Shown here piece after piece: positions 3,020 through 44,906 of a DNA stretch of 64,000 nucleotides (position 1 is the first letter of the stretch; each line of letters starts with the position of its first letter). The position numbers and the translations under genes are program-made. Below the pieces are notes generated by a model. It saw only the letters and a list, made by a program, of their open reading frames with translations. It did no database searches and was not told where the DNA came from. The stretch comes from Somniosus microcephalus (Eukaryota): assembly GCA_052327205.1 (NCBI GenBank), contig CM126216.1:23684001-23748000 (forward strand). Direction: 5' to 3'.

Positions 3020-3685
3020 TTTATGCAGAGTAAAGCTCCCTCTACACTGCCCCATCAACGACTCTGAGGGCAGGTATAGCATGATTTGGATACAGAGTAA
3101 AGCTCCCTCTACACTGTCCCATCAATGACTCTGAGGGCAGGTATAGCACGGTTTGGATACAGAGTAAAGCTCCCTCTACACTGCCCCATCAATGACTCTG
3201 AGGGCAGGTATAGCACGGTTTGGATACAGAGTAAAGCTCCCTCTACACTGCCCCATCAACGACTCTGAGGGCAGGTATAGCATGATTTGGATACAGAGTA
3301 AAGCTCCCTCTACACTGCCCCATCAACGACTCTGAGGGCAGGTATAGCACGGTTTGGATACAGAGTAAAGCTCCCTCTACACTGCCCCATCAATGACTCT
3401 GAGGGCAGGTATAGCACAGTTTGGATACAAAGTAAAGCTCCCTCTACACTGCCCCATCAACGACTCTGAGGGCAGGTATAGCACGGTTTGGATACAGAGT
3501 AAAGCTCCCTCAACACTGCCCCATTAACGACTCTGAGGGCAGACATAGCACGGATTGGATACAGAGCAAAGCTCCCTCTACACTGCCCCATCAATGACTC
3601 TGAGGGCAGGTATAGCATGGTTTGGATACAGAGTAAAGCTCCCTCTACACTGCCCCAATAAGCACTCCCAGGGAAGGTACACAGT
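3020..3685. repeat. 67-bp tandem repeat, about 10 copies
   Basis: Unit cagagtaaagctccctctacactgccccatcaacgactctgagggcaggtatagcacggtttggata; copies start at 3026, 3093, etc. Confidence 0.95.
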
Positions 3686-4780: not shown

Positions 4781-5073
4781 TTGTAGGTACTGCCGGCTCT
4801 TCTCTTGGCGCTCCTCGTCGTGGTAATGCTTTCCCAGAACCACCATCATATCGGCCGTGCTAATCAGCGTCACTTTGCCCAGCTCTGTCACGCAGTGAGC
4901 AGCGACCACGATGTTCCGCTCATTCAGGACTGCCCCGCTGCAGGCCAGGAACCACGTGCGCTGCTGGACAATCTCGTTGCTTGTCCGCGATGTCTTCTGG
5001 TAGAGCGCGGCCTGCCAAGGCCAAGCCATCGAGGTCAGATTCTGTAGGCTGAAATTGCCGAGTTTTCCGCAAA
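4781..5073 (-). CDS. PAMR1: PAMR1 exon, N-terminal part of the peptidase S1 domain
   Basis: Encodes (I)CGKLGN...WPWQAALY...CSGAVLNERNIVVAAHCVTELGK...YLQ. Phase-1 AG acceptor at 5074-5075, GTGAGT donor at 4780-4775; joins in frame to both neighbours. Confidence 0.93.
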
Positions 5074-10223: not shown

Positions 10224-10424
10224 TGTGGTGTATGTGCCTTTAAGAGCAATTATGGTGTATGTGCCTTTAAGAGCCCCAGGTGTGCGTAATGCCGGTAATT
10301 GCCACTTGGGCTATATAAGCCTGTGTATTGTGTATATCCTTTAGAAACCCCCCCAGACTTGCTTAGTAAATACCTATGAACCAATTCCTGTCTTCAGTGT
10401 CTTTATCTACACACGGACACTACA
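10224..10424 (+). mobile_element. Solo LTR related to the Gypsy element at 40224-44898
   Basis: TG...CA ends, tgtggtgtatgtgcctttaagagc...acacggacactaca; flanks atata/gtata; internal duplication of its first ~25 nt. Confidence 0.85.
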
Positions 10425-11739
10425 GTATATGCATGGCAAATGCAGTATAATGTGGATAAATGCAAGGTTATCCACTTTGGTGGCAAAAACAGGAAGGTAG
10501 ATTATTATCTGAATGGCAATAGATTAGGAGAAGGGGAAGTGCAGCGAGACCTGGGTGTCCTTGTGCACCAGTTGCTGAAGGTATGCATGCAGGTGCAGCA
10601 GGCAGTTAAGAAGGCAAATGGAATGTTGGCCTTCATAGCAAGAGGACTCAAATACAGGAGCAAAGATGTCTTGCTGCAGTTGTTAAGGGCCTTGGTGAGA
10701 CCACACCTTGAGCATTGTGTGCAGTTTTGGTCGCCTTATCTGAGGAAGGATGTTCTTGCCATGGAGGGAGTGCAGCGAAGATTCACCAGACTGATACCTG
10801 GGATGGCAGGAATGACATATGAGGAGAGATTGGGTCGATTGGGCTTATATTCACTAGAGTTTAGAAGAATGAGAGGGGATCTCATTGAATCTTATAAAAT
10901 TCTAATAGGACTAGACAGTCTAGATGCAGGAAGGATGTTCCCGATGGTCGGGGAGTCCAGAAGCAGGGGTCACAATCTAAAGATAAGTGGTAAGCTATTT
11001 AGGACAGAGATGAGGAGGAATTTCTTCACCCAGAGAGTGGTGAACCTGTGGAATTCTCTACCACAAAGGCAGTTGAGGCCAATTCATTAAATATATTCAA
11101 GAAGGAGTTAGATATATTTCTTAAGGCTAAAGGGATCAAGGGATATGGGGAGAAAGCAGGGACAGGGTACTGAGTTTGGATGATCAGCCATTATCTCATT
11201 AAATGGCGGATAGCCTCGAGGGGCCAAATGGCCTACTCCTGCTCCTATCTTCTATGTTTCTATCTATATTTCTTGGTGCAAAAGGAAGGAATTTTACAAA
11301 TGTTTGAAAAGGTTAGCGCCTGGTGATAACTTTCCAAATATTTTTCACTTAGCGCCACAAACAGCCCTCTACGGGAATTTCTTTCCCACAGTCTCTCCAC
11401 TGGTCGGCTATTTACATACCCTTACTGTTGGGAACAAAAGTCACAATCTACCAGGAACCATAGTACCATAGAGGTTTGCAGCAGAGGGACGTCCCAGCCC
11501 TTACGAGTCAGGCCGGAAATTTCCAGAAACGGCAACAAAATTATCCTTGCCATTTTCCTGTGTGTATCATGGTTTCTCTTCCTCCTTTTGTTGAACCCTA
11601 CTATTACTCATATACTTGCAGCCCCTCGGTGACATCTGCAGGCAGCGAGTCAGCTTCCATGTGTGTTGATGGCAGCAACCACTACCTCTTTCTTGACCCC
11701 ATGACTACCTCTTTACTGTCAGACATGAAGCCATGGATG

Positions 11740-13575: not shown

Positions 13576-13808
13576 TGGGAATGCACGATGGTGATCGTCC
13601 ACTCCATTTGCCCGTTTTAAGACATGTTCTTTTCCTGCTCCCAAGACGCCTGTAGAAGGGGGAGATGCACTCATACTCTAGCTGTATATGAGGATGATAG
13701 AATCCTGCTGGCAGATTCCCAATATGGTGTACTGGGGTTTTAGTGGGAGAGATTTGAGACTGCTCCTTGTCCTGTATAGTGGATAACAGCCTGTGCAGTG
13801 GAGTCTTC
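13576..13808 (-). CDS. PAMR1: PAMR1 Sushi/CCP-2 exon
   Basis: Encodes (R)KTPLHRL...[37 protein letters not shown]. Acceptor at 13809-13810, GTAAG donor at 13575-13571. Confidence 0.92.
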
Positions 13809-14110: not shown

Positions 14111-14177
14111 CTGGTCTGAAGCTGCGTTGACAGAACTTTCTGTCTCACCAGGTTAGGGATCTTGGGTTTCTTGCAAG
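14111..14177 (-). CDS. PAMR1: PAMR1 67-nt linker exon (absent from the ORF track)
   Basis: ctttctgtttcag|CT TGC AAG AAA CCC AAG ATC CCT AAC CTG GTG AGA CAG AAA GTT CTG TCA ACG CAG CTT CAG ACC AG|gtgcg = (A)CKKPKIPNLVRQKVLSTQLQT(R), similar to human ACREPKISDLVRRRVLPMQVQSR. Phases 1 and 2 fit the flanking exons. Confidence 0.88.
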
Positions 14178-16699: not shown

Positions 16700-17212
16700 A
16701 GGTAGAGTACAAGCAACTTTACTCTGTATCTAACCCGCGCTGTACCTGACCTGAGAGTGTTTGATGGGAATGTGTCGAGGGAGCTTTACTCTGCGTCTAA
16801 TCCATACTGTACCTGACCTCGGCGTGTTTTAATGGGACAGTGCAGAGGGAGCTTTACTTTGTATCTAACTCGTGCTGTAACTGACGTGGGAGTGTTTGAT
16901 GGGACAGTGTAGAGAGAACTTTATTCTGTATCAAACCCATGCTGTACTTACCCCTGAGAGCATTTGATGGGAAGGTGTAAGGGAACTTTACTCCATATCT
17001 AATTTGTATAGGTATCTGCCCTGGGAGTGTTTGATTGGACAGTGTAGAGGGAGCTTTACTCTGCATCTAACCTCTGCTATGCCTGAAATGGGAGTGCATC
17101 ATGGTACAATGTAGAGGGGGCTATACTCTGTTGTACCTACTCTGGGAGTTCTCTATGGGGCAATGTAGAGGGAGCTTTACTATGTATTTAAGTCATGCTG
17201 TAACTGACGGTA
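16700..17212. repeat. Degenerate array of the 67-bp repeat in reverse orientation (about 7-8 copies)
   Basis: gagggagctttactctgtatctaa...ctgggagtgtttgatgggacagtgta is the reverse complement of the 3020-3685 unit. Confidence 0.88.
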
Positions 17213-17971
17213 GTGCTTGAAGTTGATGCTTGTGATTTTTTTTTTAATGCACTAAAATTGTTTCAGTCTCCAGCACTACCATTTTTCTTATTTATGAACA
17301 CAAAAAAAATCAGCACAATTTACTGTGAGCCACCAAAACAGATGGTAACCCCTGTTCCCCACCAGGGGGAGTTGGTGGGGTGGGGTGGGGTAATAATACA
17401 ATCTATGACCCCAACCACATGCATATACGGGCTCTGCACAGTCCATGGTCACAAGAACATAGGAATTTTTAGGAACAAGAAACAAGTCTATCAATTTTTG
17501 ATTAATCTCAAATATATTTTCATACCTCCTCTCTGCCACATCCTCTCTTTCTCCAAAACACATTGGTTTAAAATTTTGGGTGATCTCCCGTGGCAACCTC
17601 AGCAGAAATCCAGGAGAAGTGGAGTAAAGGGCCTATTTCCCCAGGATTCTCGCCAATCTACCACCGAAGTTACCACGGGACATCGGGACAAGCCTTGTAG
17701 GTGTTTTGCCCTCACTGGTGACCTACAGAATCAGTTTGTACCATTTGGTTCAAAGGTTGTCCCTGGCAACTTGCTCCACAACTCAGCCACCCTACATACA
17801 AAAATAACCCACCTGTTTTTCATTCTTACTCCGAACTTCCTAATTTTCCTATGTAGCCCACGACATCCAAGCCCTTCATACCGCCTATTCTTTATAAAGC
17901 CTGGATTGCATCCTGTGACATGTGATATTACACCAGCCACACCACATACAAAAAGGGTTTCGCTGCATTAC

Positions 17972-18184
17972 CTTTTGTGCAGGTTGGCTGCTTCTCCGTC
18001 CACGTTCCATCCTGTTGACAAGTTCTCTGCGCACTGCCGCTCAGAACAAACGAATAATTGCAGGTGAACTGCACGATGGTGCCCACGGTCACATTGCCCT
18101 GGTGTATGTGCCCACTTCCTGGAAGAATTCGTCGATGCCCGTTCAGTGGTACACCAGAGTCAATACAGCTCTTACTCTCTGGAA
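17972..18184 (-). CDS. PAMR1: PAMR1 Sushi/CCP-1 exon, copy A (213 nt, phase 1-1)
   Basis: Encodes PESKSCIDSGVPLNGH...VQFTCNYSFVLSGSAQRTCQQDGTWTEKQPTCTK with 4 Cys and Trp. ctttag acceptor, G|gtaatg donor. Confidence 0.85.
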
Positions 18185-18714
18185 CTAAAGATCGAAGCAA
18201 TGCTTTATACAGCAGTTACAATAGTCGGTTGTCTTCTGCTCTTGGTTTATTAAGTGTTAATAATCCTATTTTTTTGACTGATAAATGCTGAAATATTTTC
18301 CTGTCAAACCTCTGCGGTTTAGCCATACAGAAGCCACTCCTGACACACCTGAGCAATGCATGTATTAATAATGCATAATAAATATTGCAGTCAATTGACA
18401 TATCATGCAGTCTACGGCTATTGCATACAGATCATTAGTGTAAGTGTTAGGATGTAGGGCAGCGGGAATCCCAGCAGCACACTCAATGAGGACATTTTTA
18501 CTTTTGCTGGAGGGGCAACAGCTCTGGGCCAGCTACACTGTAAGTGATGGCACTGAGGAATTTAGTATATAGCTGCAATTGGAGTTAGTAACCCGGAGAA
18601 AGCCCTTAATTTGTGTTAATTGGCAGCTTGAAGAATAGTGCCAATTTTGACACGATGGAATACTAATGGGAAAGCGGGCACTGTTTTCCCAGTTTTCCAT
18701 TCCTTTTAACACCA

Positions 18715-19363
18715 TCTGCATTGGTGGAGCAACAGGAATCCATATTGAAGGCTGGAACGTGTGTCCCGATGTCACTCAGCGACACCATCAAGTGATCTCT
18801 GGTCTTTAAAGAACGTCCATCACCCGTGAGCTGTCCCAGGCTGAAACATCTCACTGAATGTCAAATGTCTATTCAACAGCCCAAAGCAGGGGTAGGCTCC
18901 CTTTGTGTCATTTGACATTCATACCATTGGTAGACCCAACCGCTGAGTGACTGAGCTCGACAACCACAAGTACACCGTGTTATTTGAAATCATATTTCAA
19001 TAAATAAATAAATGCCTTCAGCTGCCTAGGTCCTAAGCTCTGGAATTCCCTCCCTAAACCTCTCTGCCTCTCTACTCTTTCCTCCTTTCAGATGCTCCTT
19101 AAAACTTACCACTTTTGGTCATCTGCCCTAACATCTTATATGGCTGGGTGTCAAATTTTGTTTTTGATAACACTCCTGTGAAGCGCCTTGGGATGTTTTA
19201 CTACATTAAAGACCCAATATAGATTTAAGTTGTTGGTATTTGAAATCATGGGCTATCAGATGTACACAATGAAAATGCTGAGGGGTTTCTATGTGTATCA
19301 GATACCTGAGGTTATTTCACTTTAAAGTTTAAGTTTGGCTACAAAAGGGTTTCACTGCATTAC
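18715..19363. repeat. Intronic segment duplicated at 32085-32702 (downstream intron of Sushi copies B and C)
   Basis: Co-linear blocks: attgaaggctgga, gacaccatcaagtgatc, caacagcccaaagcagggg, an L2 tail, and gaaatcatgggctatcagatgtacacaatgaaaatgctgagggg. Confidence 0.9.
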
Positions 19364-19576
19364 CTTTTGTGCAGGTTGGCTGCTTCTCCGTCCACGTTCC
19401 ATCCTGTTGACAAGTTCTCTGCGCACTGCCGCTCAGAACAAACGAATAATTGCAGGTGAACTGCACGATGGTGTCCAAGGTTGCATAGCCTTGGTGTATG
19501 TGCCCACTTCCTGGAAGAATTTGTCGATGCCCGTTCAGTGGTACACCAGGGTCAATACAGCTCTTACTCTCTGGAA
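19364..19576 (-). CDS. PAMR1: PAMR1 Sushi/CCP-1 exon, copy B (213 nt, phase 1-1; absent from the ORF track)
   Basis: Manual translation is open: PESKSCIDPGVPLNGHRQILPGSGHIHQGYATLDTIVQFTCNYSFVLSGSAQRTCQQDGTWTEKQPTCTK. gatttttag acceptor and gtaatg donor intact. Usage unknown. Confidence 0.7.
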
Positions 19577-19606
19577 CTAAAAATCAAAGCTTTGTATAAA
19601 AGTAAT

Positions 19607-20655
19607 AATAGAAACAGAGAAGATAGGAGCAGGAGTAGGCCATTCGGCCCCTCGAGCCTGTTCCGCCATTTAATGAGATCATGGCTGATCATCTAAACTC
19701 AGTACCCTGTCCCTGCCTTCTCCCCATATCCCTTGATCCCTTTAGCCTTAAGAAATATATCTAACTCCTTCTTGAATATATTTAATAAGTTGGCCTCAAC
19801 TGCCTTGTGTGGTAGAGAATTCCACAGGTTCACCACTCTCTGGGTGAAGAAATTACTCCTCACCTCAGTCCTAAATGGCTTACCCCTTATCATTAGACTG
19901 TGACCCCTGGTTCTGGACTCACCCGCCATCGGGAACATCCTTCCTACATCTAGTCTGTCTAGTCCAGTTAGAATTTTATAAGTTTCAATGAGATCCCCTC
20001 TCATTCTTCTAAACTCTAGCGAATATAAGCCTAATCAACTCAATCTCTCTTCATACGTCATCCTGCTATCCCAGGTATCACTCTGGTGAATCTTTGCTGC
20101 ACTCCCTCCATGGCAAGAACATCCTTCCTCAGATAAGGCGACCGAAACTGCACACAATAGTCAAGGTGTGGTCTCACCAAGGCCCTGTACAACTGCAGCA
20201 AGACATCCTTGCTCCTGTACTCGAATCCTCTCGCTATGAAGGCCAACATACCATTTGCCTTCTTAACCGCCTGCTGCACCTGCATGCTTACCTTCAGCGA
20301 CTGGTGCAAAAGGACACCCAGGTCTTGTTGCGCTTCCCCTTTTCCCAATCTATTGCCGTTCAGATAATAATCTGCCTTTCTGTTTTTGCCACCAAAGTGG
20401 ATAACCTCGCATTTATCCACATTACACTGCATCTGCCATGCATCTGCCTAATCATCCAACCTGTCCAAATCATACTGGAGTTTCTCTGCATCCTCCTCGC
20501 AACACACACGCCCACCCAGCTTTGTGTCGTCTGCAAACTTGGAGATATTACATCTAGTTCCCTCGTCTAGATCATTAATATATATTGTGAATAGCTGGGG
20601 TCCTAGCACCAATCCCTGCCGTACCCCACTTGTCACTGCCTGCCACGCGGAAAAA
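19607..20655 (-). mobile_element. CR1 3' fragment ending about 30 nt upstream of the copy-B acceptor
   Basis: FADDTKLGG and LYRALVRPHL motifs, CR1 3' UTR. Confidence 0.9.
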
Positions 20656-20714
20656 TAGTTGGGATGTCTTCAGCTTGTGTTTTTTTCATTGTTAATACTC
20701 ATACTTCTGACTAA

Positions 20715-20936
20715 TAAGAGGACCTGGAACTTGCTGCCGATGGAAGTGGTGGAAGCGGACACACTCAACGTTTTCAAGGGGAGACTGGATAGGCACTTGA
20801 GGGAAATAAACTTGCAGGGCTACGGAGATAGAGGGGGAAATGGGACTGACTGGATTGCTCTGCAGAGAGCCGGCATGGACTCGATGGGTCGAATGGCCTC
20901 CTTTTGTGCCGTTATGACTCGATGACTCTATGACTA
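20715..20936 (+). mobile_element. CR1 3' end fragment
   Basis: WNLLPMEVVEADTLNVFKGRLD motif and tgactc/tatgact tail. Confidence 0.75.
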
Positions 20937-21011
20937 ATAAATGCTGAAGTTCTTCCCTGTGAAATCTCCCATGATTCCCTGCTGGTAGATCAATATAACC
21001 ACATTGAAAGA

Positions 21012-21615
21012 GAGAACTTATATTTACATAGCGCCTTTCATGTCCTCAAGACATCTCAAATTGCTTTAAGCCAATGAATTACTTTTGAAGTGCAGTCACT
21101 GTTGTCTTGTAGACAAATGTAGCAGTCAATTTGCACTCAGTAAGGTTTCACATAAAACAATGGGGGTGATTTTGACTTTGTGCAAGTGTAAAATGGGTGA
21201 TAGCGAGTCTGCAGCCTATTTTACAGCAGAAGTCAATGGAAATAAAAACTGTGAGGAATGTAAACTGGACTGCCGATTCGCTATCACCCATTTTACACTA
21301 TCGCACAAATTCAAAATTACCCCACTGAGATAAATAACCAGATAATCTGTTTTTGTTGGCGTTGGTTGTGAGATAAACCTTGGCAGATCACCGGGAGAAC
21401 TCCTTTGCTCTTCCTCAAATAATGCCATGGGATTTTTCATATTCATCTGAGAGGGTTGACAGGATCCGATTTTAATATCTCATCTGAAGCATGGCAACTC
21501 TGATAATGCCGCACGCTTAAGTGTCAGCCTAGATTACGCACTCAAATTCTAGAGTGGGGCTTGAACCCATGATCTTCTGACTGAGGTAAGAACAGTACCA
21601 CTGCGCCAAGGCTGA
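21012..21615 (-). mobile_element. SacSINE1/DeuSINE-like SINE, split by a MITE
   Basis: Reverse tRNA head (cttgaaccc near 21560), Deu-like core (cagataatctg, ctcttc...aatgccatgggat) and tail ttgaagtgcagtcactgttg. Confidence 0.72.
21162..21323. mobile_element. About 160-bp hairpin MITE
   Basis: TIR ggggtgattttga / tcaaaattacccc plus a perfect 21-bp internal inverted repeat gtgtaaaatgggtgatagcga / tcgctatcacccattttacac. Confidence 0.8.
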
Positions 21616-23217
21616 TGGATTAGCATTGTAAGAAAGGGAGAAATCTTAATTTCTGAGTCTCCCTACTAACTAACTGGATTAAATGAAATAAGTATTATTA
21701 GTTATAGTTTTAAGTTTGTATTGTTATTATTATGTAACTGATACTCAATGCACAATGATGCTTGAATAATCATGCTTTTAAAACTAGTACAGTATGCCCT
21801 GGGTAGATTAGATATTAAAACGTCCTCTTGACGAACATTCTTGACCAACATTTTAAAAGTGCTTCTCAGCAAACTTATTAATAAAAACAGACAGTGGGAA
21901 CAGGACTAGCAAGGTCATATATGGCTGCCACTGTGTGGAATATTACAATATCTGCAGGGAATTAAAAACACAGGCAAATAGCAAGGACACATATCTCTAC
22001 ACATGGAGACGTGTTCTATTTGTGTTGCCATAACTACCCAAGATAGGAGTCTTGATGGTCAAAAACAGATGGGCCATGATTTTATTGGAGGAGGCGGGTT
22101 AGACTCAGGTTGCCTGATGGGTGGGTTCCAGTCCCGCTGCCAGTTTCAGCCGCTCCCAATTTGCGATTTTAAATTAAGTGGGCTCATTAAGCCCGCCATG
22201 CGCGCTGCCCGGTCCAATGAGTGGGAGCGGGTCTGCTGCTCGCCTCTGATGACGTAATTCCTTCAGTTACTTTTAAGGGGGCCATGTAGCCTCAGTTTAT
22301 CATTTCGTTTGTGCTGCTGTGGGAATCGGCCCAGGTGACCATGACTGCTGCCAAAGCAAAGGCTGCTCCGCGCTTCGATGAGGACTCCCTCCAAGCTCTT
22401 GTGGAGGGAGTAATAAGGCGCAGGGAGATTCCGTTCCTTCCCGATGGCCGGAGGAAGCCTCCTCAGCAGACAAAGGCAGCCTGGCTGCAAATTGCTGAGA
22501 AGGTAAGTGCTAGGTCCTTCTGCTCATGCACCTGGGTGCAGTGCCGAAAATGGTTCAATGATCTTCTGCGCTCATCAAAAGTATCATATCACAATTACCT
22601 TCAATCTGCTTCCCTTCTCATCACCAGCACTCTGTTTTGTCAGCCTGCTCCTCCACATCCCACCTTACCCTTACTTCCCTTGCACCTTTACCTATCCATC
22701 TCTCTCTATGTACAGAATCACTTCACCATCCTACTATGCACCCCTCACACTCGCTCTCACTGTTATGCAATGACAACACTGTTATGCAATGACAACAACT
22801 AACAACTCACAGGGAGGCAGCTTCCTCTTGGCACCTCACTCCATCTTGGTCTCCCTCTAAGCTTCTATGTTATGGATTCTTCACAGTCACTCCATCAATC
22901 TTGCTGAAACTCCACCTGTGTCCCTCCTTGCAGGAAAAGATAGCCCACAATAAGAGGGAGAGAGCAACAACAGGAAGAGGACCACCATCCCTCGTTACAT
23001 TGACTAGCGCTGAGGAGGCTGCTCATGACATTGTGGGAGGTGGCGAGGAGCTGGAAGTGGGGGACGGAGAGACGGACGCAGTAGTGGAAGCTGGTGACAG
23101 AATAGATTTTCACCCTCTCATTTAGATTTCACGATTGACTGAAATGGCATATGATGTTCATAAAGATTAACTTTTGATCATCTGCACAATAGGATGAGTG
23201 TGCTACCTAAATATCAG

Positions 23218-23926
23218 GGCCTAGAAATTCGGTGGGCTGCGCCACCAGTTAGCGCCTAAAGAGGGCACTCAGTGGCTTTAGCGCCACTGGCCACGCCTCC
23301 CGCGATATTTAGCGGGGCGCTAATGGCGGTGTTAACCTGTTGTGCTGCGCCGCCACCGATGACGTCATCGGTGTGCGCAGTGCCCCGCTACCGCCCCAAT
23401 CTCGATATTCGGCAGCGCCCGTCTCTGTAGCGTCGTTCGCAAATGGCGCCCGGTTCACGGGGCCTACCTGTGGCGGCAGTGGCGCAAATTAAGGTGGAGG
23501 TGCGGGGCGGCCGTTTTTTTCGGTGGCCGCCTGCCAGCACCTCCGTCCCCGGCCCCCTGATCGCCCCCCGCGGCATTGCCGGCTGTTTTCCGAGAGCCCG
23601 GCACTTCTCCTCGGTGCTGGGCACTTTTGCCGGCACTTGCGATCTCTGATCGCGCTGGTGCAGGCCCCTCCCCCTTAAGAATGGGAGGAAGGCCTGCAGT
23701 ACCGCAGCGCGCCGTGCCGCAGCGTGTGGCGCTGCGGCACGTTACGCTGCAATATTCAGTTTCAGCGCCCTAAGAGGGACGCGGAGCACCTCGAGCCTCG
23801 CCCCATGTCCCTCTTGGGGCGCTCAAGCTGAATTTCCGGCGGTCGCAGCTGCTCCCAACACTGCGCTAAATCCGGCGCCCAGGCGAGTTTGGCGCCCCGT
23901 TTGCGGCTCCACCCAATTTCTCCCCC
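23218..23926. mobile_element. Harbinger MITE (GGCCTAGAAATT family) in Myb intron 2 of H1
   Basis: TIRs ggcctagaaatt / aatttctccccc, TSD CAG/CAG; co-linear with 44907-45596. Confidence 0.88.
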
Positions 23927-24939
23927 CAGATGTTTAACTCATGCCTTTACTCTCCCACAGGACCATCGAGAGCTACCCCTTCCCACTGTCCAGGAGGAAG
24001 AGCCGAACGACTCCTCAGAGGAAAGTGCAGCCTCTGAGCGAGCAGCGTCACCAGGACTCAGCGCACCCAGCACCAGCACAGAAACGCACACCTCGGTGGG
24101 TCCTGCGCGCCATGGAGTAGTGTTGTCACCTGGTGCATCACAGCTCACAAGTGAGCATCAGCAGATGGTGGAGACAACGACAGCAGTGGAGAGTCCTTGT
24201 TGGAGGTCGCAGGACTCTACTAGCTCTGCTCAGCTGCATGTAGACGCTGTGCATCTGGGGTCAACCAGGAAGAGAGCGGTGCTGGAACTTCAGTAACAAG
24301 TGCAGGAGTCTCTGACAGGTTTTGCATCCATGGTAACTGCAAGTGTGCAGAGAATGGAGGAGTCCATCTCAAACATCAGCACTGCCTTGGTGGAGTCAAT
24401 AGCACATGGAGAGTGTGGCAACCTCCATGGAGGAAATAACTCGCCAGACACAACAGAGCATGGTGACTCTTCTAAATAGATGGTCTGCTATGGAGGAGAG
24501 ATGGGCATTGATTGAGGAGAAACACCAGAGGTACATGGACGTCCCCATTATGAGGACTGTCAGTACAGAGACGGGTCCTCATGGCTCCATTGATGTTCAG
24601 CAAGGTGCTTTCCAGCCATTTGCTAGCACTGAAGTGCGGGTGACCCATGAGAGGGATGTTGGTGGCCGACAACAAGGAAGTGTGGGCTCCTCTCCAAGCG
24701 CTCACACCACCATGCCACTGCGGCGCTCTCGATCAGAGCCCCAGATTCCGCACCCAACTGAGATGGCCGTTTCAGTCCCTGCACAGCCGCAGGAAGAGCA
24801 GACTGTTGCGGAGCCCTCCCAGGCTCTCAAACCCAAAGGACGCAAATCAAAGACGTCTAAGCAGGTGCAGCAGAGAAGTGAGCAAGCTGCCTCTACATCT
24901 GCTGAAGCCACCGGAGAAGCACTACGTAGAAGCACGCGT

Positions 24940-25450
24940 TCTTGCCATGGAAGGAGTGCAGCGAAGATTCACCAGACTGATACCTGGGATGGCAGGAATG
25001 ACGTATGAAGAGAGATTGGGTCGATTCTTATATTCGTTAGAGTTTAGAAGAATGAGAGGGGATCTCATTGAAACTTATAAAATTCTAACTGGACTTGACA
25101 GACTAGATGCAGGAAGGATGTTCTCGATGGCGGGAGAGTCCAGAACCAGGGGTCAGAATCTAAGGATAAGGGGTAAGCCAATTAGGACTGAGATGAGGAG
25201 GAATTTCTTCACCCAGAGACTGGTGAACCTGTGGAATTCTCTACCACAGAAGGCAGTTGAGGCCAATTTATTAAATATATTCAAGAAGGAATTAAATATA
25301 TTTCTTAAGGCTAATGGGATCAAGGGATATGGGGAGAAAGCAGGGACAGGGTACTGAATTTGGATGATCAACCATGATCTCATTAAATGGCGGAGCAGCC
25401 TCGAGGGGCCAAATGGCCTACTCCTGCTCCTATCTTCTATGTTTCTATGT
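24940..25450 (+). mobile_element. CR1 3' fragment
   Basis: LAMEGVQRRFTRLIPG...EKAGTGY and tctatgtt tail. Confidence 0.9.
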
Positions 25451-25756
25451 AAGAGAAAGTTAACACACAAATAGTCACAAGGGGAGTCACTTGGGTGTTT
25501 TCATCTGAAACAAAACTTTGTCATCGTTATTATTAATGTATTAAAGAAAAGCGATGGCAAAGATTCAAAGAGTTGGCCTATGTGTGCTCAGAAATGGCAG
25601 TTGCACAATGAAGGGTCAGGGTGCCTTTCATCTATAATGATGGTGGTGAGAGAGAGAGAAAACCACAGTTTATTGCACAGATGATGTATGGTGTGTAAAG
25701 AAGGTCGGCCAGACATTCATTTCCATGTGCCAGCCATATGTAGTTGATGCGTCATA

Positions 25757-26965
25757 TTACGCGAATCTGGCATGGATAAGTACATCCCTTGCCTCATGGC
25801 CAGCAATGTGCTCATCTTCTGCTGGTTTTGGCACATCTGCCCCCGCAAGGCGTCCCTCATCTGCCACCTCCTCCTCCTCCTCTTCCGAGGAGGCTCTGTG
25901 CTGGGCCACTTGTTCCTCAGGCAGCGCTAGGCCACACTGCTATGCGATGTTGTGCAGGCAATGATGATTCTGGAGAACCGTGGCTGGTGCGTACTGCAGG
26001 GCTCCACCAGATCTGTTGAGGCATCGGAATTGCATTTTCAGCAAGCCGATGGATTGCTCTATGATGCTTCTGGTGGAAATGTGGCTCACATTGTACCGCT
26101 CCTCAGCCTCGTTTGATGGCCTCCTCATCGGTGTTATGAGCCACTTTTTCAGGGGATAGCCCTTCTCACCAAGTAGCCATCTGGAAAGTTGGGTTGGCGG
26201 ATTGAAGAGCAGAGGCACAGTTGACTGCCGCTGGATGAAGGAATCATGGCAACTGCCAGGGTACTTGGTGCAAACATGCATAATGATCTTCCTGTGGTTA
26301 CACAACAGCTGGATGTTAAGGGAGTGTAAGTCCTTGCGGTTGACAAATACAGCTGGGTTGTGATGGGGTGTCCTTAAGGCCACATGTGTGCAGTTGACGA
26401 TGCCCTGCACCCTTGGGAAGTCTGCCATATTTGAAAATCCAACCGCATGCAAAGTTACACTTGCTTCATCCGTGGAGAAGTGGATCTAATTGTGCAACTT
26501 TGCAAAGAGGGCATCCAACCTGCATGATGCAGGTGTGTGTGGCCGACTGGGTGATGCCGCTGATGTCTGCTGCTGATCCCTGGAAGGAACCCGAAGCAAA
26601 GAGGTTGGGTGCAGTGGTGACTTTAACAGCCACTGGTATGGAGTGTCCACCTGCTCCTCTGGGCTCCAGGTGTTTGTGCAGATGTCTGTGACTAGCTCTC
26701 GCGAAAGTCCCAGCCTCCTTTGGCACAGCTACTCACTCATGCTGAGGAAGCTCATCCTCGACCTGTAAACCCTGTGGAGGGGGTATCTCTGGCGGCGAGG
26801 TGCAACCCTCTGCTGACGCCCTCTGCCCTGTTCATCATGATGTGGCTGAGGAGAAGGTTGGCACTCTTGTTGCTGGTGCTGCTGTTCTGCCTGGTTGTAC
26901 TGCTGCCGTGGCTGCTCTTCCTCCAAATCTGGCGACCAGGATGAGAGGATATAAATGGTGCCCAT
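25757..26965 (-). pseudogene. H1 HARBI1-like DDE transposase, frameshifted
   Basis: [61 protein letters not shown]; both catalytic Asp positions altered (N, E). Confidence 0.85.
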
Positions 26966-26986
26966 TCCACTTGTGGATATCTCAGT

Positions 26987-28060
26987 TAAGAACATAAGAA
27001 CATAACAACATAAGAAATAGGAGCAGGAGTAGGCCATTCGGCCCTTCGAGCCTGCTCTGCCATTCAATGAGATCATGGCTGATCTTCTGCCTCAATTCCA
27101 TTCACTGGCCTTATCGCCATACCCCTTGATGCCCTTACTAGTCAGAAATCTATCGACTTCTGTTTTGAATATACCCAATGACTGAGCCTCCACAGCCCTC
27201 TGGGGTAGAGAATTCCAAAGATTCACCACCCGCTGTGTGAAGAAATGTCTTCTCATCTCAATCCTGAATGGTCTACCTTTTATCCTGAGGCTGTGGCCCC
27301 TGGTTCTAGACTCCCCAGCCAAGGGAAACATTCTCCCAACATCCACCCTATCAAGCCCTGTAATAATTTTGTATGCTTCAATGAGATCCCCTCTCATTCT
27401 TCTGAATTCAACAGAATGCAGGCCTAGTTTACTCAATCTCTTCTCATACGACAGTCCCGCCATCCCAGGAATCAATCTCGTGAACCTTCGTTGCACTCCC
27501 TCTGTAGCAAGTATATACTTCCTTAGGTAAGGAGACCAAAATTGTACACAGTACTCCAGGTGTGGTCTCACGAAGGCCCTATATAATTGGAGTAAGATTT
27601 CTTTACTCCTGTACTCAAATCCTCTTGTAATGAAGGCCAGCATACCATTTGCCTTCCGAATGGCTTGCTGCACCTGCACATTCACTTTCAGTGACTCATG
27701 TACAAGGACACCCAGGTCCCTTTGAGCATCTGCATTCCCCAATCTTTCACCATTTAGGAAATAAACTGCCTTTCTGTTTTTTCTACCAAAGTGGATAACT
27801 TCACATTTATCCACATTATATTCCATCTGCCATGTTCTCGCCCACTCACTGAGCCTGTCGAGATCCCCTTGAAGCCTCTTCACATCCTCTTCGCAACTGA
27901 CACTGCCACCTAGCTTTGTGTCATCAGCAAATTTGGAAATTTTAGTCCCCTCATCCAAATCATTGATATAGATTGTGAATAGCTGGGGCCCAAGCACCGA
28001 TCCTTGTGGTACCCCACTAGTCACAGCCTGCCATCCTGAAAAAGACCCATTTATCCCTAC
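26987..28060 (-). mobile_element. CR1 3' fragment upstream of the H1 transposase
   Basis: 310-aa ORF with GVPQGSVLGP and FADD; (ataagaac)n tail on +. Confidence 0.9.
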
Positions 28061-28683
28061 TCAGATAATTGAGCAATAGAGGTTGCAAGTGCTCAGAGGG
28101 TCTTCCAAGGAGGTCAAACTGCAGATGGATCTCAGCTTGAACACTCACAAGATCAGTTGAGCTGCAAAACCTCAAAGCACTAACTTGTGCCATCTCAAAC
28201 TCAGCCATGGTGTAGGATCACTTTTAAGCTGCTCCAGCAGCTGCTAACAATTCAGCTCCTTGCTAAACCCGGCACAATGCAGCTGGCGTGTTTGTCTGAT
28301 GACGGGCAAAACGCAGAAAAAAATCAAAAATCGCAACAGCCAGTTAAAATAAGATTAGCAAGGCAGTTAACAAGTTGCGAGTGCCTCTCCCGCCGTTTGG
28401 TGTCGGGTCTGATCAGGACTCACAGACCTGACACTTGGCAAAGTAGCATGGAGGTGGGATGGCGGCGGGTTCGCAACCTGCCATCAGTCATTCCGATTTT
28501 TACTCCCAACTGGCCTCCAAACCCACCCTCTGAGTGCCGGCAAATTTGTGGCCATGATGTCAGGGTGTCGAGATGAGAACCTGACAGGGTCAGGTGGGAT
28601 CATTAGTTATATGGCATCCCTGTAATTGGACGGGGAGGTAAGGTTGGGTTAACTGGTCCACATAGGCTTTGCTGGGAAGAAGT

Positions 28684-30290
28684 ATAAGAACATAAGAAAT
28701 AGGAGCAGGAGTAGTCATTCGGCCCATCGAGTCTGCTCTACCATTCAATAAGATCATGGCTGATCTTCTACCTCAACACTTTCCTGCACTATCCCCATAT
28801 CCCTTGATTCCCTTAATATCCAAAAATCTATCGATCTCTGTCTTGAATATACTCACTGACTGAGACCTCGGGTGGAGAATTCCAAAGATTCACCACCCCG
28901 TGTGAAGAAATGTCTCCTCATCTCAGTCCTAAATGGCCGACCCCTTATTCTGAGACTGTGACCCCTGGTTCTAGATTCCCCAGCCTGGGGAAACATCCTC
29001 CCAGCACCTACCCTGTCAAGCCCTGTAAGAATTTTTGTATGTTTCAATGAGATCACCTCTCATTCTTCTAAACTCCAGATAATATAGGCCTAGTCTACTC
29101 AATCTGTCCTCATGGGACAATCCCCCCATCCCAGGAACCAGTCTGGTGAACCTTCATTGCACTCTCTCTATGGCAAGTTTTTTCTTCCTGAGGTAAGGAG
29201 ACCAAAACTGTACACAATACTCCAGGCGTGGTCTCACCAGGGCCCTATATAATTGCAGTAAGACGTCTTTACTCTTCTACTCAAACCCTCTTGTAATGAA
29301 GGCCAGCATACCATTTGCTTTCCTAATTGCGTGCTGTACCTGCATGTTAACTTTCAGTGATTTGTGTACAAGGACACCTAGGTCCCTCTGAACACCAACA
29401 TTTCCCAATCTCTCACCATTTAAAAAATATTCTGCTTTTCTATTTTTCCTACCAAAGTGGATAATTTCACATTTCTCCACATTATCGTCCATTTGTCATG
29501 TTCTTGCCCACTCACTTAGCCTGTCTATAACCCCTTGAAGCCTCCTTGCATCCTCCCCACAACTTACATTCCCACCCAGCTTTGTATTATCAGCAAACTT
29601 GAATATATTACATTTGGTCCCCTCATCCAAACCATTGATGTAGATTGTGAATAGCTGAGGCCCAAGCACTGATCCTTGCGGTACCCCACTAGTTACAGCC
29701 TGCCAACCCCAAAATTACCAGTTTATTCCTACTCTCTGTTTTCTGTCCACTAACCAATCCTCAATCCATGCTAGTACATTACCCCCAATCCCATGAGCCC
29801 TAATTTTGTTTAATAACCTCTTGTGTGGCACCTTATTGAATGCCTTCTCAAAATCCAAATACACCACATCCACTCGTTCTCCATTATCTATTCTGTTCGT
29901 TACAACCTCAAAAACAGATTTGTCAAACACGATTTCCCTTTCATAAATCCGTGTTGACTCTGCCCAATCCTATTATTATTTTCTAAGTGTCCTGTTACCA
30001 CGTCCTTAATATTAGATTCTAGCATTTTCCCTACTATTGATGTGAGGCTAACTGGTCTGTAGTTCCCCGTTTTCTCTCTCCCTCCTTTCATAAATAGCAG
30101 GGTTACATTTGCTACCTTACAGTCCGCGGGAACCATTCTAGAATCTATGCAATTTTGGAAGATGACAACCAATGCATCCACTATCTCTGTAGCCATCTCT
30201 TTCAAAACCCTAGGATGTAGGCCATCAGGTCCAGGGGATTTATCGGCTTTCAGTCCCAATAATTTCTCCAGTACTATTTTTTTTACTAAC
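28684..30290 (-). mobile_element. CR1 fragment (RT to 3' UTR), frameshifted
   Basis: KSPGPDGLHPRVL, NYRPVSLTS and YLDFEKAF motifs. Confidence 0.9.
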
Positions 30291-30835
30291 ACTAAGAAGG
30301 GGTCTCTCAAGCACTTAGTTTGTGGAGGCATTCGGCAAGAAGCTTGGGAACATCCACGAGACGAGGCAAGGAGAGTTTTGGGTTTGGGTTGGCGGAGGAC
30401 CCACACCCGTCACACCGGGTGGACGAGCAAGCCTAGAGGTCAGGTCCAATGGAGGTTGACCCATGGAGATCGCGTCTTCTACCCAGGGCCCAACGGATAA
30501 TATAAACCTTGATTGCGCCTTGTTTAACTAATGCTCAGATGCTGTAATGTATCAAGTCTCACTTTCACTGAATAAAATATAATTGCTGTCACCAATACGG
30601 GTCAAGTCGAATCTTTCGGAACTTAGGAATGAAAGGATTAATTGGCACAGGCCCAGAAACTCAACAGCATTAAGAGTTCAAGCTGGAAATCTGGTCAATC
30701 CTACGCCACCTGTGATCAAGACCTTTGCACTTCACTCAAGTGGTTCTACAGCTATTTAGTTTAAGTAGCTGTATTTAAACTACAGCTGCAGAGGTCAACC
30801 GTGCTGTGAAGAGTGGAATATGATGGAAATGATGG

Positions 30836-31760
30836 CGCAGAGCAAGAACTTGTTTTACTGACAGGGCTTCGTCAGAATTCATTGACGCGGTGCTGGAGAG
30901 GCTGGCTGCTCCTTATGGGTCTGTGGGCCCCAGCGCTGCACAGGCTGGGCAGCAGCCTTTCTGGAAAGGTGTTGCAACCAGGGTAAATGCTCAGGACTGA
31001 GATGCACAAGATATTCAGCAAAGAAAAACAGGGCAGGTAGGATTATGAGCACATATGTTGGAAGCTGCTTGTAATCCACGCTCCCTATTACTGCCACAAT
31101 ATGTGGTGTGACATTTGAAATTAGTGCAAATATTCATCAAACATTATTGACTTGCACGATAGGAACCAAATCAACCTGACTGCCATTGTAAAGGGATATT
31201 TGCAAGGAAACCACACACTGTCCTATAAAGGTATTTATCTCTCACAAAATGGAGCACACTGCATAAGGTCGATTTTACAAAGTCAAACTTTACCAAATAG
31301 CACTTTTGGATTATGTAATCTAGGAACAAGCACTCCATAACTTTCTGTCCATTAAATTAAATTAAATTAAGTTAAATGACTGGATAGAAAATCATGGGAT
31401 CCATGTACCTACATTCTCAAAATGCACTGCCAGTGGGCGAGGTAGGAGTGTGATTTTGTAAATTCCTCCTTAAGTGCACTTACTTTTATTCATGTTCTAT
31501 GTTGGAAATACATGTGGGAATGCACGAGAATGACTTACAGGCCATAAATGGAGCATGCGCTGGGAATTCAAAGTGCTATGCCTGACTAACCCATAGTTAT
31601 AAAACAGCTGCACCAGTGAACCTTTACCAGCAATATTTTGTACAGATGTACTTAATACTTCTTCTAGGCCAAGTTATCCTACAACAGCTGAGCCAGACAC
31701 TGTCTGGAGTGTCCAGTTTAGTGGATGAAGGATGCAGAGGTCTGCTCTCTAGTACCTCGC
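30836..31760 (+). pseudogene. Ancient Harbinger Myb/SANT-like gene remnant
   Basis: 30836-31010 translates RRARTCFTDRASSEFIDAVLERLAAPYG...FWKGVATRVNA. At 31668, cttctag|GCC AAG TTA TCC TAC AAC (AKLSYN) parallels H3 exon 2 (AKLANN). Confidence 0.55.
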
Positions 31761-32702
31761 TTGGCCATGGTGCAGACAACACTGGTGAGCCTCATCTCTC
31801 CTTGTGTTTCACCAATAATACACACATTACCAGCTTCGCAGGTCACAGGTGAAAAGGAGGTTACCGTTCCTTTTAAGACTAACTGCATTGATGGAGCAAC
31901 AGGAAACACACCCAACGTTAGCGTCCGCACTGAGGGCTGGAGTGTGCATCAAGTGATCCCTGGTCAGGTACAGCAGCAGTTAGGCGAGATTCAGAGTTTG
32001 TACTGCACCCAACCCGAACTTCACAGAGTGGTTCCAGAAAACAATGTCCAGGTCATCAATGTGAAGTGACTAGGCTAAAACCAGCTGCATTTGTAGAGTA
32101 GCAGGAGTCTGTATTGAAGGCTGGAGCATGTGTCCAGATGTCACCCAGCGACACCATCAAGTGATCCCTGGTCTTTAAACATCATTCATCACCTGTGAAG
32201 TGTCCTGGGCTGAAACATCTCACTGAACGTCAAATGTCTATGAGAAAATTCAACAGCCCAAAGCAGGGGTAGGCTCCCTTTGTGTCATTTGACATTCATA
32301 CCATTGGTAGACCCAACCGCTGAGTGACTGAGCTCTACAACCACAAATACACTGTTATTTGAAATCATATTTCAATAAATAAATAAATGCTTTCAGCTGC
32401 CTAGGTCCTAAGCTCTGGAATTCCCCCCCTAAACCTCTCTGCCTCTCTACTCTTTCCTCCTTTCAGACACTCCTTAAAACCTACCACTTTTGGCTGGGTG
32501 TCAAATGTTGTTTTTGATAACACTTCTGTGAAGTGCCTTGGGACGTTTTACTACATTAAAGGTGCTATATAAATTTAAGTTGTTGTTATTAGAAATCATG
32601 GGCTATCAGATGTACACAATGAAAATGCTGAGGGGATTCTATGTCTATCAGATATTTGAGGTTATTTCAATTTTTAACTATAAAAGGGTTTTGCTGCGTT
32701 AC

Positions 32703-32915
32703 CTTTTGTGCAGGTTGGCTGCTTCTCCGTCCACGTTCCATCCTGTCGACAAGTTCTCTGCGCACTGCCGCTCAGAACAAATGAATAATTGCAGGTAAAC
32801 TGCATGATGGTGCCCACGGTCACATAGCCCTGGTGTATATGCCCACTTCCTGCGAGAATTCTTCGTTGCCCATTCATTGGTACACCAGGGTCAATGCAGC
32901 TCTTTCTCTCTGGAA
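32703..32915 (-). CDS. PAMR1: PAMR1 Sushi/CCP-1 exon, copy C (canonical acceptor AG>AA; may be a pseudoexon or use an AG 6 nt downstream)
   Basis: Open frame PERKSCIDPGVPMNGQRRILAGSGHIHQGYVTVGTIMQFTC...CTK. Donor gtaacg intact; acceptor reads ctttaa where copy A has ctttag. Confidence 0.5.
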
Positions 32916-33139: not shown

Positions 33140-36100
33140 TATAGTAATCTCGGATGCAATGCTTAAGTTATCCACCAGAGGGAGACAAATGTTAAGGGTT
33201 CATTTACCAGTTTTTTAAGGTAAAATTGCATTATGGGTAGAATGACTCATAGGATCATCCATCTTGGATGCATCGTGCAGTAGAATTACAAGTGCATGCC
33301 TGTAGCTTGTAAGAGCTCTGTTCTCTCCTTATTCTGTGTAAATTAAAAGTAAAGTTGAGTTCCTGAAGTCTCACTTATATCAATTAATTGGACCTTACTA
33401 CTCGGATATAACATTTGGCGATGAGGATTAACTGTTTCAACTTGAAGAAGGGAAAATACAAGAACACTGCATCTGAATCATGGCTACTCGAGTAGGAGAG
33501 ATTTCTGCTTTTGATGTTCAAAATCAAACATGGATAGAGTACTGTGAGTTATTGGAGCATTTCTTTGTGGCAAATGATATAGTTGATGTCGGGAAAAGGA
33601 GAGCTATTTTGCTCACTTCCGTGGGAAGTCTGACGTATAGTTTATTGAGAAACTTATGCAGTCCTGCAAAGCCTGGAGATAAATCATTTACTAAATTAGT
33701 GGACTTGCTAAAGGAACATTTCAATCCCAGACAGAGTGAGATTGTACAGCGTTTCAAATTTAATTCACGGAACAGGAACCCGGGCGAGTCTGTGTTGGAT
33801 TATGTAGCGGTGTTGAGAAAACTGGCACATGATTGCAATTACGGGAACAGTTTGAAGGACATGCTGAGAGATAGGCTGGTTTGTGGAATAATGGATGCTC
33901 GAATGCAGAGGAGATTATTGTCCAAGACTGGGCTTACGTATGAAAAAGCATTGGAACTTGCTCAATTAATAGAGACAGCAAACCGAGATGTAAAAGAAAT
34001 ACAAGGTTGCGACTGGTCTACTACAAAGCAAGTTGGAAGTCAGTTTATTGTGCACAAGTTAAATATGAGTCATACACCACAACGTGCGCATTTAAAGGCA
34101 TGTTATAGATGCAATGGAGATCACCTGGCAAGGGAATGCAGGTTTCTGGAGGAAAAGTGCCGCAAGTGTGGGAAAAAAGGACATATAAAATGTGCATGTA
34201 GAGCAAAAGCTACCCTGGAGGTATACAAACCTAAAGGGGCAGAAAAGCAAAACCTTGGAAGAGAAGTAAAAAAACAGGGAGCACATCACATCAGTGGAGA
34301 AGCTGAGAAAGAAGACGACGTGTTCATAATGCATAGTATGGTAGAGGACATTCCTAAAGTGGATTCTATCACTTTGCAACTGATAGTAAATGACACTAAG
34401 GTGAACTTTGAGGTGGATACTGGATGTGGCGTTACCATAATGAACAGGGAGGAATATTCAAAATTGTGGAACCGTGCAAAAGTTCCAGAGTTAAAGTCTT
34501 GCTCTATGAAGCTTAAAACCTATACCGGTGAATGAGTGGCAACATTGGGTGCAGCTATTGTAACTGTGAAACACAGGGACACCGTGGAACAGCTACCTGT
34601 AGTTGTAGTATCGGGTTCTGGACCAAATTTGTTAGGTCGGGGCTGGATAAAAGAACTTAAATTAGATTGGGGAGCAATAAATCAAATGGAGAGAGGCAAA
34701 CAGTTGTCTTTGCCAGACGTGTTGATTGAACATGAGAACGTGTTCAAGGAAGAACTTGAACATTTAATGGCCCCCCAGCTAAGATTTATGTCGACAAGGA
34801 GGACATGGACACGGCAATTGTGACCGCAGAACAAGTAAGGACTTGGACTGGTAAGGATCCAGTACTGTCTAGAGTCCGAGAATATGTACTGAGGGGTTGG
34901 CCACAACATCCGGAAGGGACTGATTTCACACCTTACAGTGTCAGGAAGACAGAGCTGAGTGTGCAGGATGGTTGTGTGTTGTGGGGAGCTTGAGTGATTA
35001 TTCCACAGCTAGCACGACAGTCTATCCTAGTGCAACTACATCAGTGTCATCCTGGAGTTTTGCGCATGAAAGCATTGGCAAAGAGTTACTTGTGGTGGCC
35101 AAAGCTAGATGAGGAAATAGAAAATCTAGTCAAGACATGCAGCACTTGTCAAGAATACAGGAAGGCACCAGCAGCGGCTCCACTCCACCCCTGGGAGTGG
35201 CCGGAAAAACCATGGAGAAGATTACATGTTGATTATGCGGGTCCATTCATGGGAAAGATGTTCCTCATAATCATTGATGCACATTCCAAATGGATGGATG
35301 TGTATCCTGTAAATTCTGCTTCATCTACTGTTACTATAGACTGCCTGCGTAGGAGTTTTAGTAATCAAGGGATACCGGAGATCGTAGTAAGTGACAATGC
35401 CACGTGTTTTATGAGTACAGAAACAAAAGAGTTCATGAGAAACAATGGCATAGTGCACGTGACTTCAGCTCCATATCATCCGCCTTCAAATGGACTTGCC
35501 GAGAGAGCCATACAAACATTTAAGGAGATGATGAAAAAAAGTGCAGAAGGGAGTTTGACAGCAAAGATGTCACAAGTTCTGTTCAGCTACAGAATAGCAC
35601 CTCAATCTACCACAGGACTCTCTCCTGCTGCGTTATTGTTAGGATGTCGACTACGCTCCACTCTTGACCTGGTTCACCCAGACCTAAAAAGGAAGGTGGA
35701 AAACCGACAAATCAAACAAAAGGAGAACCATGACAGAAGGACAAAGAGCCGCAGGTTTGGAGAAGGAGATGCGATCCTTACCAGAAATTTCAGTTATGGT
35801 CCAAAATGGATTCCTGGTGTCATAGACTCAATGACCGGTCCAGTTTCATATAGGGTTATGTTGGGAACTGGTCAGGTAGTACGCAGACATGTGGATCAGA
35901 TACTGACCAGACAATGGGAGATCGAACTGGAGGTTCCAGAGGAAAGGTTGGAGGACAGGTTGGTCCCCAGTTATCCAAATGCATTGGTGGTACCAACACC
36001 ACGAACAGAGACAGTTATACCTGGACCCCTTCATCAAGAGGAAACCATCGTAGCAGAGTCAGATACTCTGAGTACTGCTCAGGAGCAGCAGGTGGCTTTA

Positions 36101-36549
36101 CCACAACAAAGCAGGGACTTGACTGTAAGACGTTCAACAAGGTCTCACAAGCCACCAGACAGATTGATCACGACCTGCTAGATTCGTTCAGGATGGACTA
36201 TCGTTGAAGAAGTTTCCTTATGGACTTTTAAGAATGTTGTTAAGAATTGTTGTAACTTAAGAGGGGGGGGGGATATAGTAATCTCGGATGTAATGCTTAA
36301 GTTATCCACCAGAGGGAGACAAATGTTAAGGGTTCATTTACCAGTGTTTTAAGGTAAAATTGCATTATGGGTAGAATGACTCATAGGATCATCCATCTTG
36401 GATGCATTGTGTAGTAGAATTACAAGTGCATGCCTGTAGCTTGTAAGAGCTCTGTTCTCTCCTTATTCTGTGTAAATTAAAAGTAAAGTTTTGAGTTCCT
36501 GAAGTCTCACTTATATCAATTAATTGGACCTTACTACTCGAATATAACA
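33140..36549 (+). mobile_element. Ty3/Gypsy LTR retrotransposon G1 with RT-RNaseH deleted
   Basis: LTRs 33140-33413 and 36274-36549 (both TA...CA), TSD GGCAT, PBS tggcgatgaggat (tRNA-Ser(GCU)-like), PPT gaggggggggggg. Gag with CCHC, protease VDTG and integrase are present. Confidence 0.93.
33480..36181 (+). pseudogene. G1 gag-protease-integrase (in-frame TGA at 34533 and 34991; junction near 34790-34810)
   Basis: CYRCNGDH and CRKCGKKGH knuckles, FEVDTGCG, LHQCHPG, HVDYAGP, SDNAT, GLAERAIQTFK. Confidence 0.88.
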
Positions 36550-44898: not shown

Positions 44899-44906
44899 GA
44901 CACCAA

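Follow-up and report, generated by a model that had tools for sequence, protein, structure and literature searches.

Three Sushi-1 exon copies in PAMR1 of Somniosus microcephalus: a probable tandem array, common to sharks and rays and likely homogenised in this lineage

We analysed 64,000 nucleotides (nt) of the Somniosus microcephalus genome (GenBank assembly GCA_052327205.1, contig CM126216.1, positions 23,684,001 to 23,748,000; hereafter the window), which carry on the minus strand three copies of the PAMR1 exon encoding Sushi-1, a complement control protein (CCP) module. In transcript order the copies are C, B and A, and comparison with related species suggests that in the main form all three are probably spliced in together as a tandem array. 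Judged from annotated sequences, three copies are the norm in sharks and rays, and the triplication is not peculiar to this genome, contrary to what an earlier reading made from the sequence alone (the sequence-only reading) had implied. The locus does not reveal a new splicing system; it is mostly ordinary domain expansion, with copies that were probably re-homogenised recently in this lineage.

The sequence-only reading had named the gene PAMR1, and this was upheld. Matches of Pristiophorus PAMR1 to the window by tblastn are colinear (83-96% identity) in the order Sushi-1, linker, Sushi-2 and S1-like domain, and a protein search with copy A gave 13 matches among 31 candidates, all from cartilaginous fishes and 12 of the 13 named PAMR1. 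On this sequence evidence the window gene is the PAMR1 ortholog. For two single-copy exons, identity is 94-95% with Heterodontus, Pristiophorus, Carcharodon, Cetorhinus and Heptranchias but 83-87% with rays, which marks the source as a shark. Both protease-like exons match Pfam Trypsin and keep the His and Asp motifs, with ETGG at the place of the catalytic Ser, where we take DSGG to be the expected motif; a trypsin-like domain without its catalytic Ser is predicted to be an inactive protease. The EGF exon, an upstream Sushi exon and the CUB domain were not found in the 64-kb window. Since all of these, including the exon preceding C, lie outside it, the intron upstream of C must exceed 31 kb. 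Human PAMR1 has the domain order CUB-EGF-Sushi-Sushi-inactive S1, and is studied as a two-Sushi protein with binding partners unknown even in human (bioRxiv 10.1101/2022.09.07.506931).

The three copies stand where they had first been located, in one common open frame with four Cys and a Trp each. Their donors (AAG/GTAATG, AAG/GTAATG and AAG/GTAACG) are U2-type in GT-AG introns. Each copy is a whole Sushi/CCP module on a single phase 1-1 exon of a length divisible by three, the three scoring 46.4, 40.6 and 42.1 bits against Pfam Sushi (PF00084; cut-off 20.7), and the best solved-structure matches of the module are complement CCP proteins. Chance similarity is excluded by self-BLAST (E-values among copies of at most 1e-108), and neither tblastn nor blastn found a fourth copy in the window. 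The copies differ at 8 (A-B), 15 (A-C) and 19 (B-C) nucleotides, of which only the first two fall within the 8-15 differences given by the sequence-only reading. That reading also described three 213-nt exons, which holds for A and B. The Sushi-1 exon has two acceptors 6 bases apart (AG-TTCCAG), yielding 213- and 207-nt forms that are both phase 1-1, but C carries AA instead of AG at the 213-nt acceptor (before 32915) and is thus usable only as a 207-nt exon. The first copy in the model of Pristiophorus, the closest relative, uses exactly the same short form. Copy A has a second N-glycosylation sequon (NVT) without a counterpart in B and C.

To place these copies among relatives, we counted Sushi-1 modules with a Sushi profile in 44 cartilaginous-fish PAMR1 models (41 from 20 shark and ray species, three from chimaeras) obtained from the copy-A search and from cluster members, with two added from another source. 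These models are database predictions, and the counts leave out a 50-residue fragment (P0040) and one of the 16 members of one cluster, missing from its listing. Three copies were present in 34 of the 44, four in one, two in six and one in three; for the 41 shark and ray models the corresponding numbers are 34, one, five and one. The longest model has three copies in 18 of the 20 shark and ray species, with four in Narcine and two in Rhinoraja. Representative cases are Pristiophorus japonicus (model X1, 955 residues), Heptranchias perlo (XP_067849735.1) and Heterodontus francisci (XP_067902028.1), which likewise have three Sushi-1 copies in tandem before the exon beginning ACKKP, although the identity of their copies does not match the window by position. 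Linkers between copies are 6 residues long in 51 cases and 8 in 26, matching the two acceptors 6 nt apart.

Directly upstream of the array, where an EGF exon had been supposed, most relatives' models have a different Sushi domain of 57 residues between EGF and the first Sushi-1 copy. It is missing from five of the 41 shark and ray models and behaves as a cassette exon in relatives' annotation. Together with three Sushi-1 copies and Sushi-2 it would give the full form five CCP modules. The two to four modules of the sequence-only reading thus become a range of two to five; its view that the protein can carry more than the human two is upheld. Isoforms of birds, reptiles and marsupials also differ by the presence or absence of the 57-residue exon (777 vs 720 residues); this old cassette does not appear in the domain list for human.

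Joint inclusion in S. microcephalus is inferred mainly because relatives' models join the copies: at least two are found in one protein in 40 of the 41 shark and ray models. As each exon is one whole module, joining them keeps both frame and fold. In a relative's sequencing run that we guess to be RNA (run X1), a 1256-letter contig covers exactly the Sushi-2 exon, preceded by 98 letters (1+67+30); a second stops exactly at 18184, the outer acceptor of A, with 30 letters beyond, the letters themselves not being displayed; and a third extends into intron. Thirty letters is the overlap expected at a branch of a 31-mer graph, which fits a Sushi-1 end with two continuations, one into the following exon and one into a further copy. 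This pattern is consistent with joint inclusion and is not proof of it. Two Logan-derived, teleost-like proteins from contigs of 3.4 and 4.1 kb carry both ray-fin copies in one frame.

The array would be spliced from C to B to A and then to the exon at 14177. The product would be a secreted protease homologue without catalytic activity, in which about five CCP modules, against two in human, separate EGF from the inactive protease domain. Its CCP stalk, running from the CUB-EGF head to the S1-like domain, would be lengthened and, going by CCP modules in general, could act as a longer spacer or offer extra binding surface. Choice of acceptor would set each linker at 6 or 8 residues, copy A would contribute its additional glycosylation sequon, and the further Sushi exon, outside the window, would come in as it does in relatives.

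Several observations weigh against this array as the main form. In two raw RNA runs bearing the species label of the best-matching run (X23 and X24, read at 24% and 31%), the gene is barely expressed and depth over copy A is zero, and no copy-to-copy junction was seen in this species, 1155 joints in these runs being hidden by repeat-derived ones. Among the matching runs listed by a search with the last exon, none is recorded as RNA. In X24 the bin of two downstream exons holds about 13 reads' worth of sense depth, with zero on A. This weak hint of skipping is the single same-label observation that speaks against constitutive inclusion and, at its size, carries little weight; it could also arise from 3' bias, from reads placed on B or from intronic reads. 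The sequences of relatives are database predictions that come without visible read support for their junctions, and some of them depart from the full array: the middle copy is skipped in Heptranchias X2, Mobula hypostoma X4 retains the third alone, and the three Callorhinchus models disagree (copies 1 and 2, 1 only, 2 only).

These departures also favour the view that the copies are regulated cassettes, with tissues including none to three of them and so tuning CCP number, a scheme for which the phase 1-1 exons, all multiples of three, would be suited. It gains from the trace of X24 depth and from the upstream Sushi exon, which part of the shark, ray, bird and marsupial isoforms lack. Among shark and ray models, however, only the two named above (2 of 41) skip a copy found in the same species' longer model, whereas the upstream exon is missing from four of 41 besides Mobula X4, and no skipping junction was observed in this species' barely expressing runs. 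The sequence-only reading had offered cassettes as one candidate; frame preservation and the two skipping models agree with it, and occasional skipping may occur, but regulated inclusion we consider unlikely.

Switching between mutually exclusive variants of a single module, the other earlier proposal, is very improbable. The copies are homologous neighbours in the same frame and of near-equal length, as required of candidates by Hatje et al. 2017 (PMC5740500), where most clusters lack an identified mechanism, so that lack of one is not excluding; two chimaera models also use one copy each. In these respects they resemble the mutually exclusive tandem exon clusters described in that study and a second one (PMC9013439), but differ in that the models of relatives join them, every copy is an entire domain, and no mechanism of exclusion was found. 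The introns (13,126 nt for C-B and 1,179 nt for B-A) are far above the 50-nt steric limit, there is no mixture of U2 and U12 sites, and joint inclusion keeps the frame, leaving no frameshift block. Folding of nine flank segments gave no duplex clearly beyond shuffled sequence (at most 4 kcal/mol past the best of four shuffles each, a coarse comparison), and long inverted repeats are mostly pairs of mobile elements. A candidate docking/selector arm at 22052-22082 was rejected: it matches both the B and C downstream introns (71% over 31 nt) because these are duplicates of one another, and it pairs at only -13.4 kcal/mol.

It is equally improbable that the assembly has duplicated one or two of the copies, or that these are pseudo-exons left unused. 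Such doubtful duplicates do occur, as identical adjacent copies in Narcine and bowfin models show, and here A and B have 119 identical bases in common and differ mostly by replacement changes (six vs two synonymous). Against duplication in assembly, contigs of run X17, possibly the source sample, cover A and its flanks on either side together with the A-B intron (17044-18900 with 0-1 other letters), as well as the 5' half of C and its flank (0-2 other letters throughout); the contigs listed did not include that of the B exon. At both ends, 18900 and 32277, they break 30 nt into the 88-nt repeat that B and C have in common, and X17 depth is 15.2 on the shared exon (A) against about 10 beside it. 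Three copies being the clade norm likewise makes an artefact unlikely. Also against this reading, every Cys, frame and donor is kept in all copies, and B and C differ by 10 replacement changes over 164 sites against nine synonymous over 46. The sequence-only reading had reached the same view of assembly duplication, partly from distinct flanks. The flanks are not all distinct: some 40 nt on the upstream side and 21 nt on the downstream side are common to all copies, and the introns downstream of B and C match over about 650 nt (92% identity).

Somewhat less firmly than joint splicing, we favour a history in which an old multi-copy state was later overwritten in this lineage by unequal crossing-over or gene conversion, through a long tract including intron for B and C and a short exon tract for A and B. 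Copies within one gene differ at 6-10 of 68 residues in the window, 7-8 in Pristiophorus and 6-8 in Heptranchias, whereas the range is 15-30 in 10 of 11 galeomorph species and mostly 20-29 in rays. Carcharodon and Cetorhinus copies stand 15-19 apart, although their single-copy exons are as close to the window (94%) as those of Pristiophorus and Heptranchias. Between species, window copies differ by 8-15 residues from those of Heptranchias and 10-21 from those of galeomorphs, with no positional signal, and by 6-11 from those of Pristiophorus, overlapping the range within the window. The closest match of window A, the third copy, is Pristiophorus copy 2 (six differences), and that of Pristiophorus copy 3 is window C (seven). 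Galeomorph and ray copies mostly group by position across species, while the window copies do not. Trees forcing together all first or all third copies were rejected by the approximately unbiased (AU) test (p-AU 7e-5 and 0.008, respectively); the tested tree held 10 of 21 cartilaginous species, and the groups were named after inspection of a 59-row tree from which two species were left out.

Within the window, exon and intron give conflicting groupings. Exon sites join A with B (13 sites vs 6 and 2), whereas intron homology joins B with C, which alone share the downstream intron; the corresponding A-B comparison, used as a control, could not be aligned. The recombination signal was judged by run tests on the three DNA copies in place of PHI (pairwise homoplasy index) or NSS (neighbour similarity score): the identical A-B run has p=0.023 and the B-C intron run p=0.005 (gaps ignored), both uncorrected and open to selection. 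An exact B/C intron match (88 nt; 18871-18958 and 32248-32335) lies within a region otherwise 92% identical and represents either a conserved element or a tract of recent conversion. Sharks and rays separated about 270-300 million years (My) ago. At the synonymous rate given for whale and zebra sharks (dS 0.061-0.111 over ~50 My; PMC13100897), the B-C intron distance of 0.087 corresponds to about 40-70 My with an upper bound of 95, well after that split. Concerted evolution of domain repeats confined to particular lineages has been described but is uncommon (PMC5100051); the same study notes high repeat purity in some lineages of a family together with signs of recombination; the window differs in that its units are separate exons kilobases apart.

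Other points count against such overwriting. Sixty-eight columns resolve little, and the best tree does not unite the three window copies in a clade, the test of that grouping only failing to reject it (p-AU 0.355). For synonymous distances to C (7/47 and 9/46) the intervals extend to about 290-370 My, and the clock was taken from other sharks. Branches are short in the lineages whose copies are alike, so part of the resemblance is due to slow evolution; sharks mutate slowly (PMC10587355).

Outside cartilaginous fishes, one Sushi-1 copy was found in all 101 coelacanth and tetrapod proteins scanned (among the best 120 of 911 matches, which included no placental mammal); human and other tetrapod PAMR1 is the same gene with the same downstream exon order but a single Sushi-1. 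In ray-finned fishes (bichir, sturgeon, paddlefish, gar, bowfin and teleosts) the slot is likewise duplicated, with two copies in 109 of 110 newly listed proteins, almost all named ray-finned (among the best 120 of 967 matches), and three in bowfin. The shark-built profile under-counted three ray-fin proteins, which we counted by eye. Unlike those of sharks, ray-fin copies are 7 residues shorter and well diverged, and ray-fin and cartilaginous-fish copies each form a starred clade of their own (100/96). This suggests separate duplications, though homogenisation inside each lineage would give the same pattern. The 59-row tree starred a single origin for the ray copies as a whole (98/92), a grouping that the 32- and 46-row trees did not resolve, and we do not claim an independent ray triplication. 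Most teleost proteins printed have a low-complexity spacer of 60 to about 500 residues between the two copies, while milkfish has none. In both Narcine and Amia two adjacent copies are identical in protein sequence, and are either very recent duplications or assembly duplicates.

Seen against this background, human PAMR1 is the short form, and repeated duplication of the same exon has given up to five CCP modules in cartilaginous fishes and four in ray-finned fishes. This points to the Sushi-1 slot as a tolerant spacer or avidity element and is a lead for PAMR1 function, while the window offers a compact case of exon-level homogenisation across introns of 1-13 kb. A more ambitious synthesis, in which the slot is a recurrent duplication hotspot of jawed fishes, with separate expansions in cartilaginous and ray-finned fishes, and holds in this shark lineage a live array whose exons still overwrite one another, and in which regulated cassettes with two-way acceptor choice let tissues tune the length and stiffness of a stalk of two to five modules, is speculative and rather improbable as a whole. 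The Sushi-1 expansion was not described in the full-text literature searched (supplements and most subscription journals fall outside that search), and the architecture is already in the public annotation of 18 other species.

Table 1. Coordinates of PAMR1 exons and shared tracts in the window.
Feature	Position	Strand	Remarks
Sushi-1 copy C	32703..32909	-	First in array; phase 1-1 exon of 207 nt; outer acceptor reads AA (dead), leaving the inner tandem AG
Sushi-1 copy B	19364..19576	-	Second in array; 213 nt, or 207 nt via inner AG
Sushi-1 copy A	17972..18184	-	Third in array; 213 nt, or 207 nt via inner AG
Intron 3' of B	18707..19363	-	Homologous to intron 3' of C; 51 mismatches in 619 aligned bases
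Intron 3' of C	32076..32702	-	Homologous to intron 3' of B
A/B identical stretch	17963..18081 (A), 19355-19473 (B)	-	119 nt; exon 3' half and donor; candidate recent conversion tract
Next PAMR1 exon after A (ACKKP..., 67 nt)	14111..14177	-	tblastn of Pristiophorus PAMR1
Sushi-2 exon (233 nt)	13576..13808	-	tblastn of Pristiophorus PAMR1
First protease-like exon (293 nt)	4781..5073	-	Pfam Trypsin and tblastn
Last coding exon, protease-like domain and stop codon	2329..2859	-	Pfam Trypsin and tblastn

Mobile elements and tandem repeats surround these exons. A retroelement bounded by long terminal repeats (LTRs) lies at 33140-36549, 230 nt upstream of copy C, with 276-nt direct repeats of 97.5% identity and integrase domains in a plus-strand open reading frame. 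A young LTR retroelement at 40224-44899 has 177-nt repeats 98.9% identical and encodes protease, reverse transcriptase, RNase H and integrase domains, in an order that we take to be Ty3/Gypsy-like; a related LTR-like piece lies at 10244-10426. A repeat resembling a long interspersed nuclear element (LINE; 19608-20645) ends about 30 nt upstream of the B acceptor and replaces the upstream intron common to A and C, and an inverted copy of it (24938-25448, 93-94%) lies in the same intron. The C-B intron also contains a DDE_Tnp_4 transposase fragment (25943-26485), presumably Harbinger-like. Tandem arrays occur at 3026-3657 (67-bp unit) and 48383-49048 (74 bp), and a 30-bp array of at least 96 copies (61125-64000) runs past the window end.

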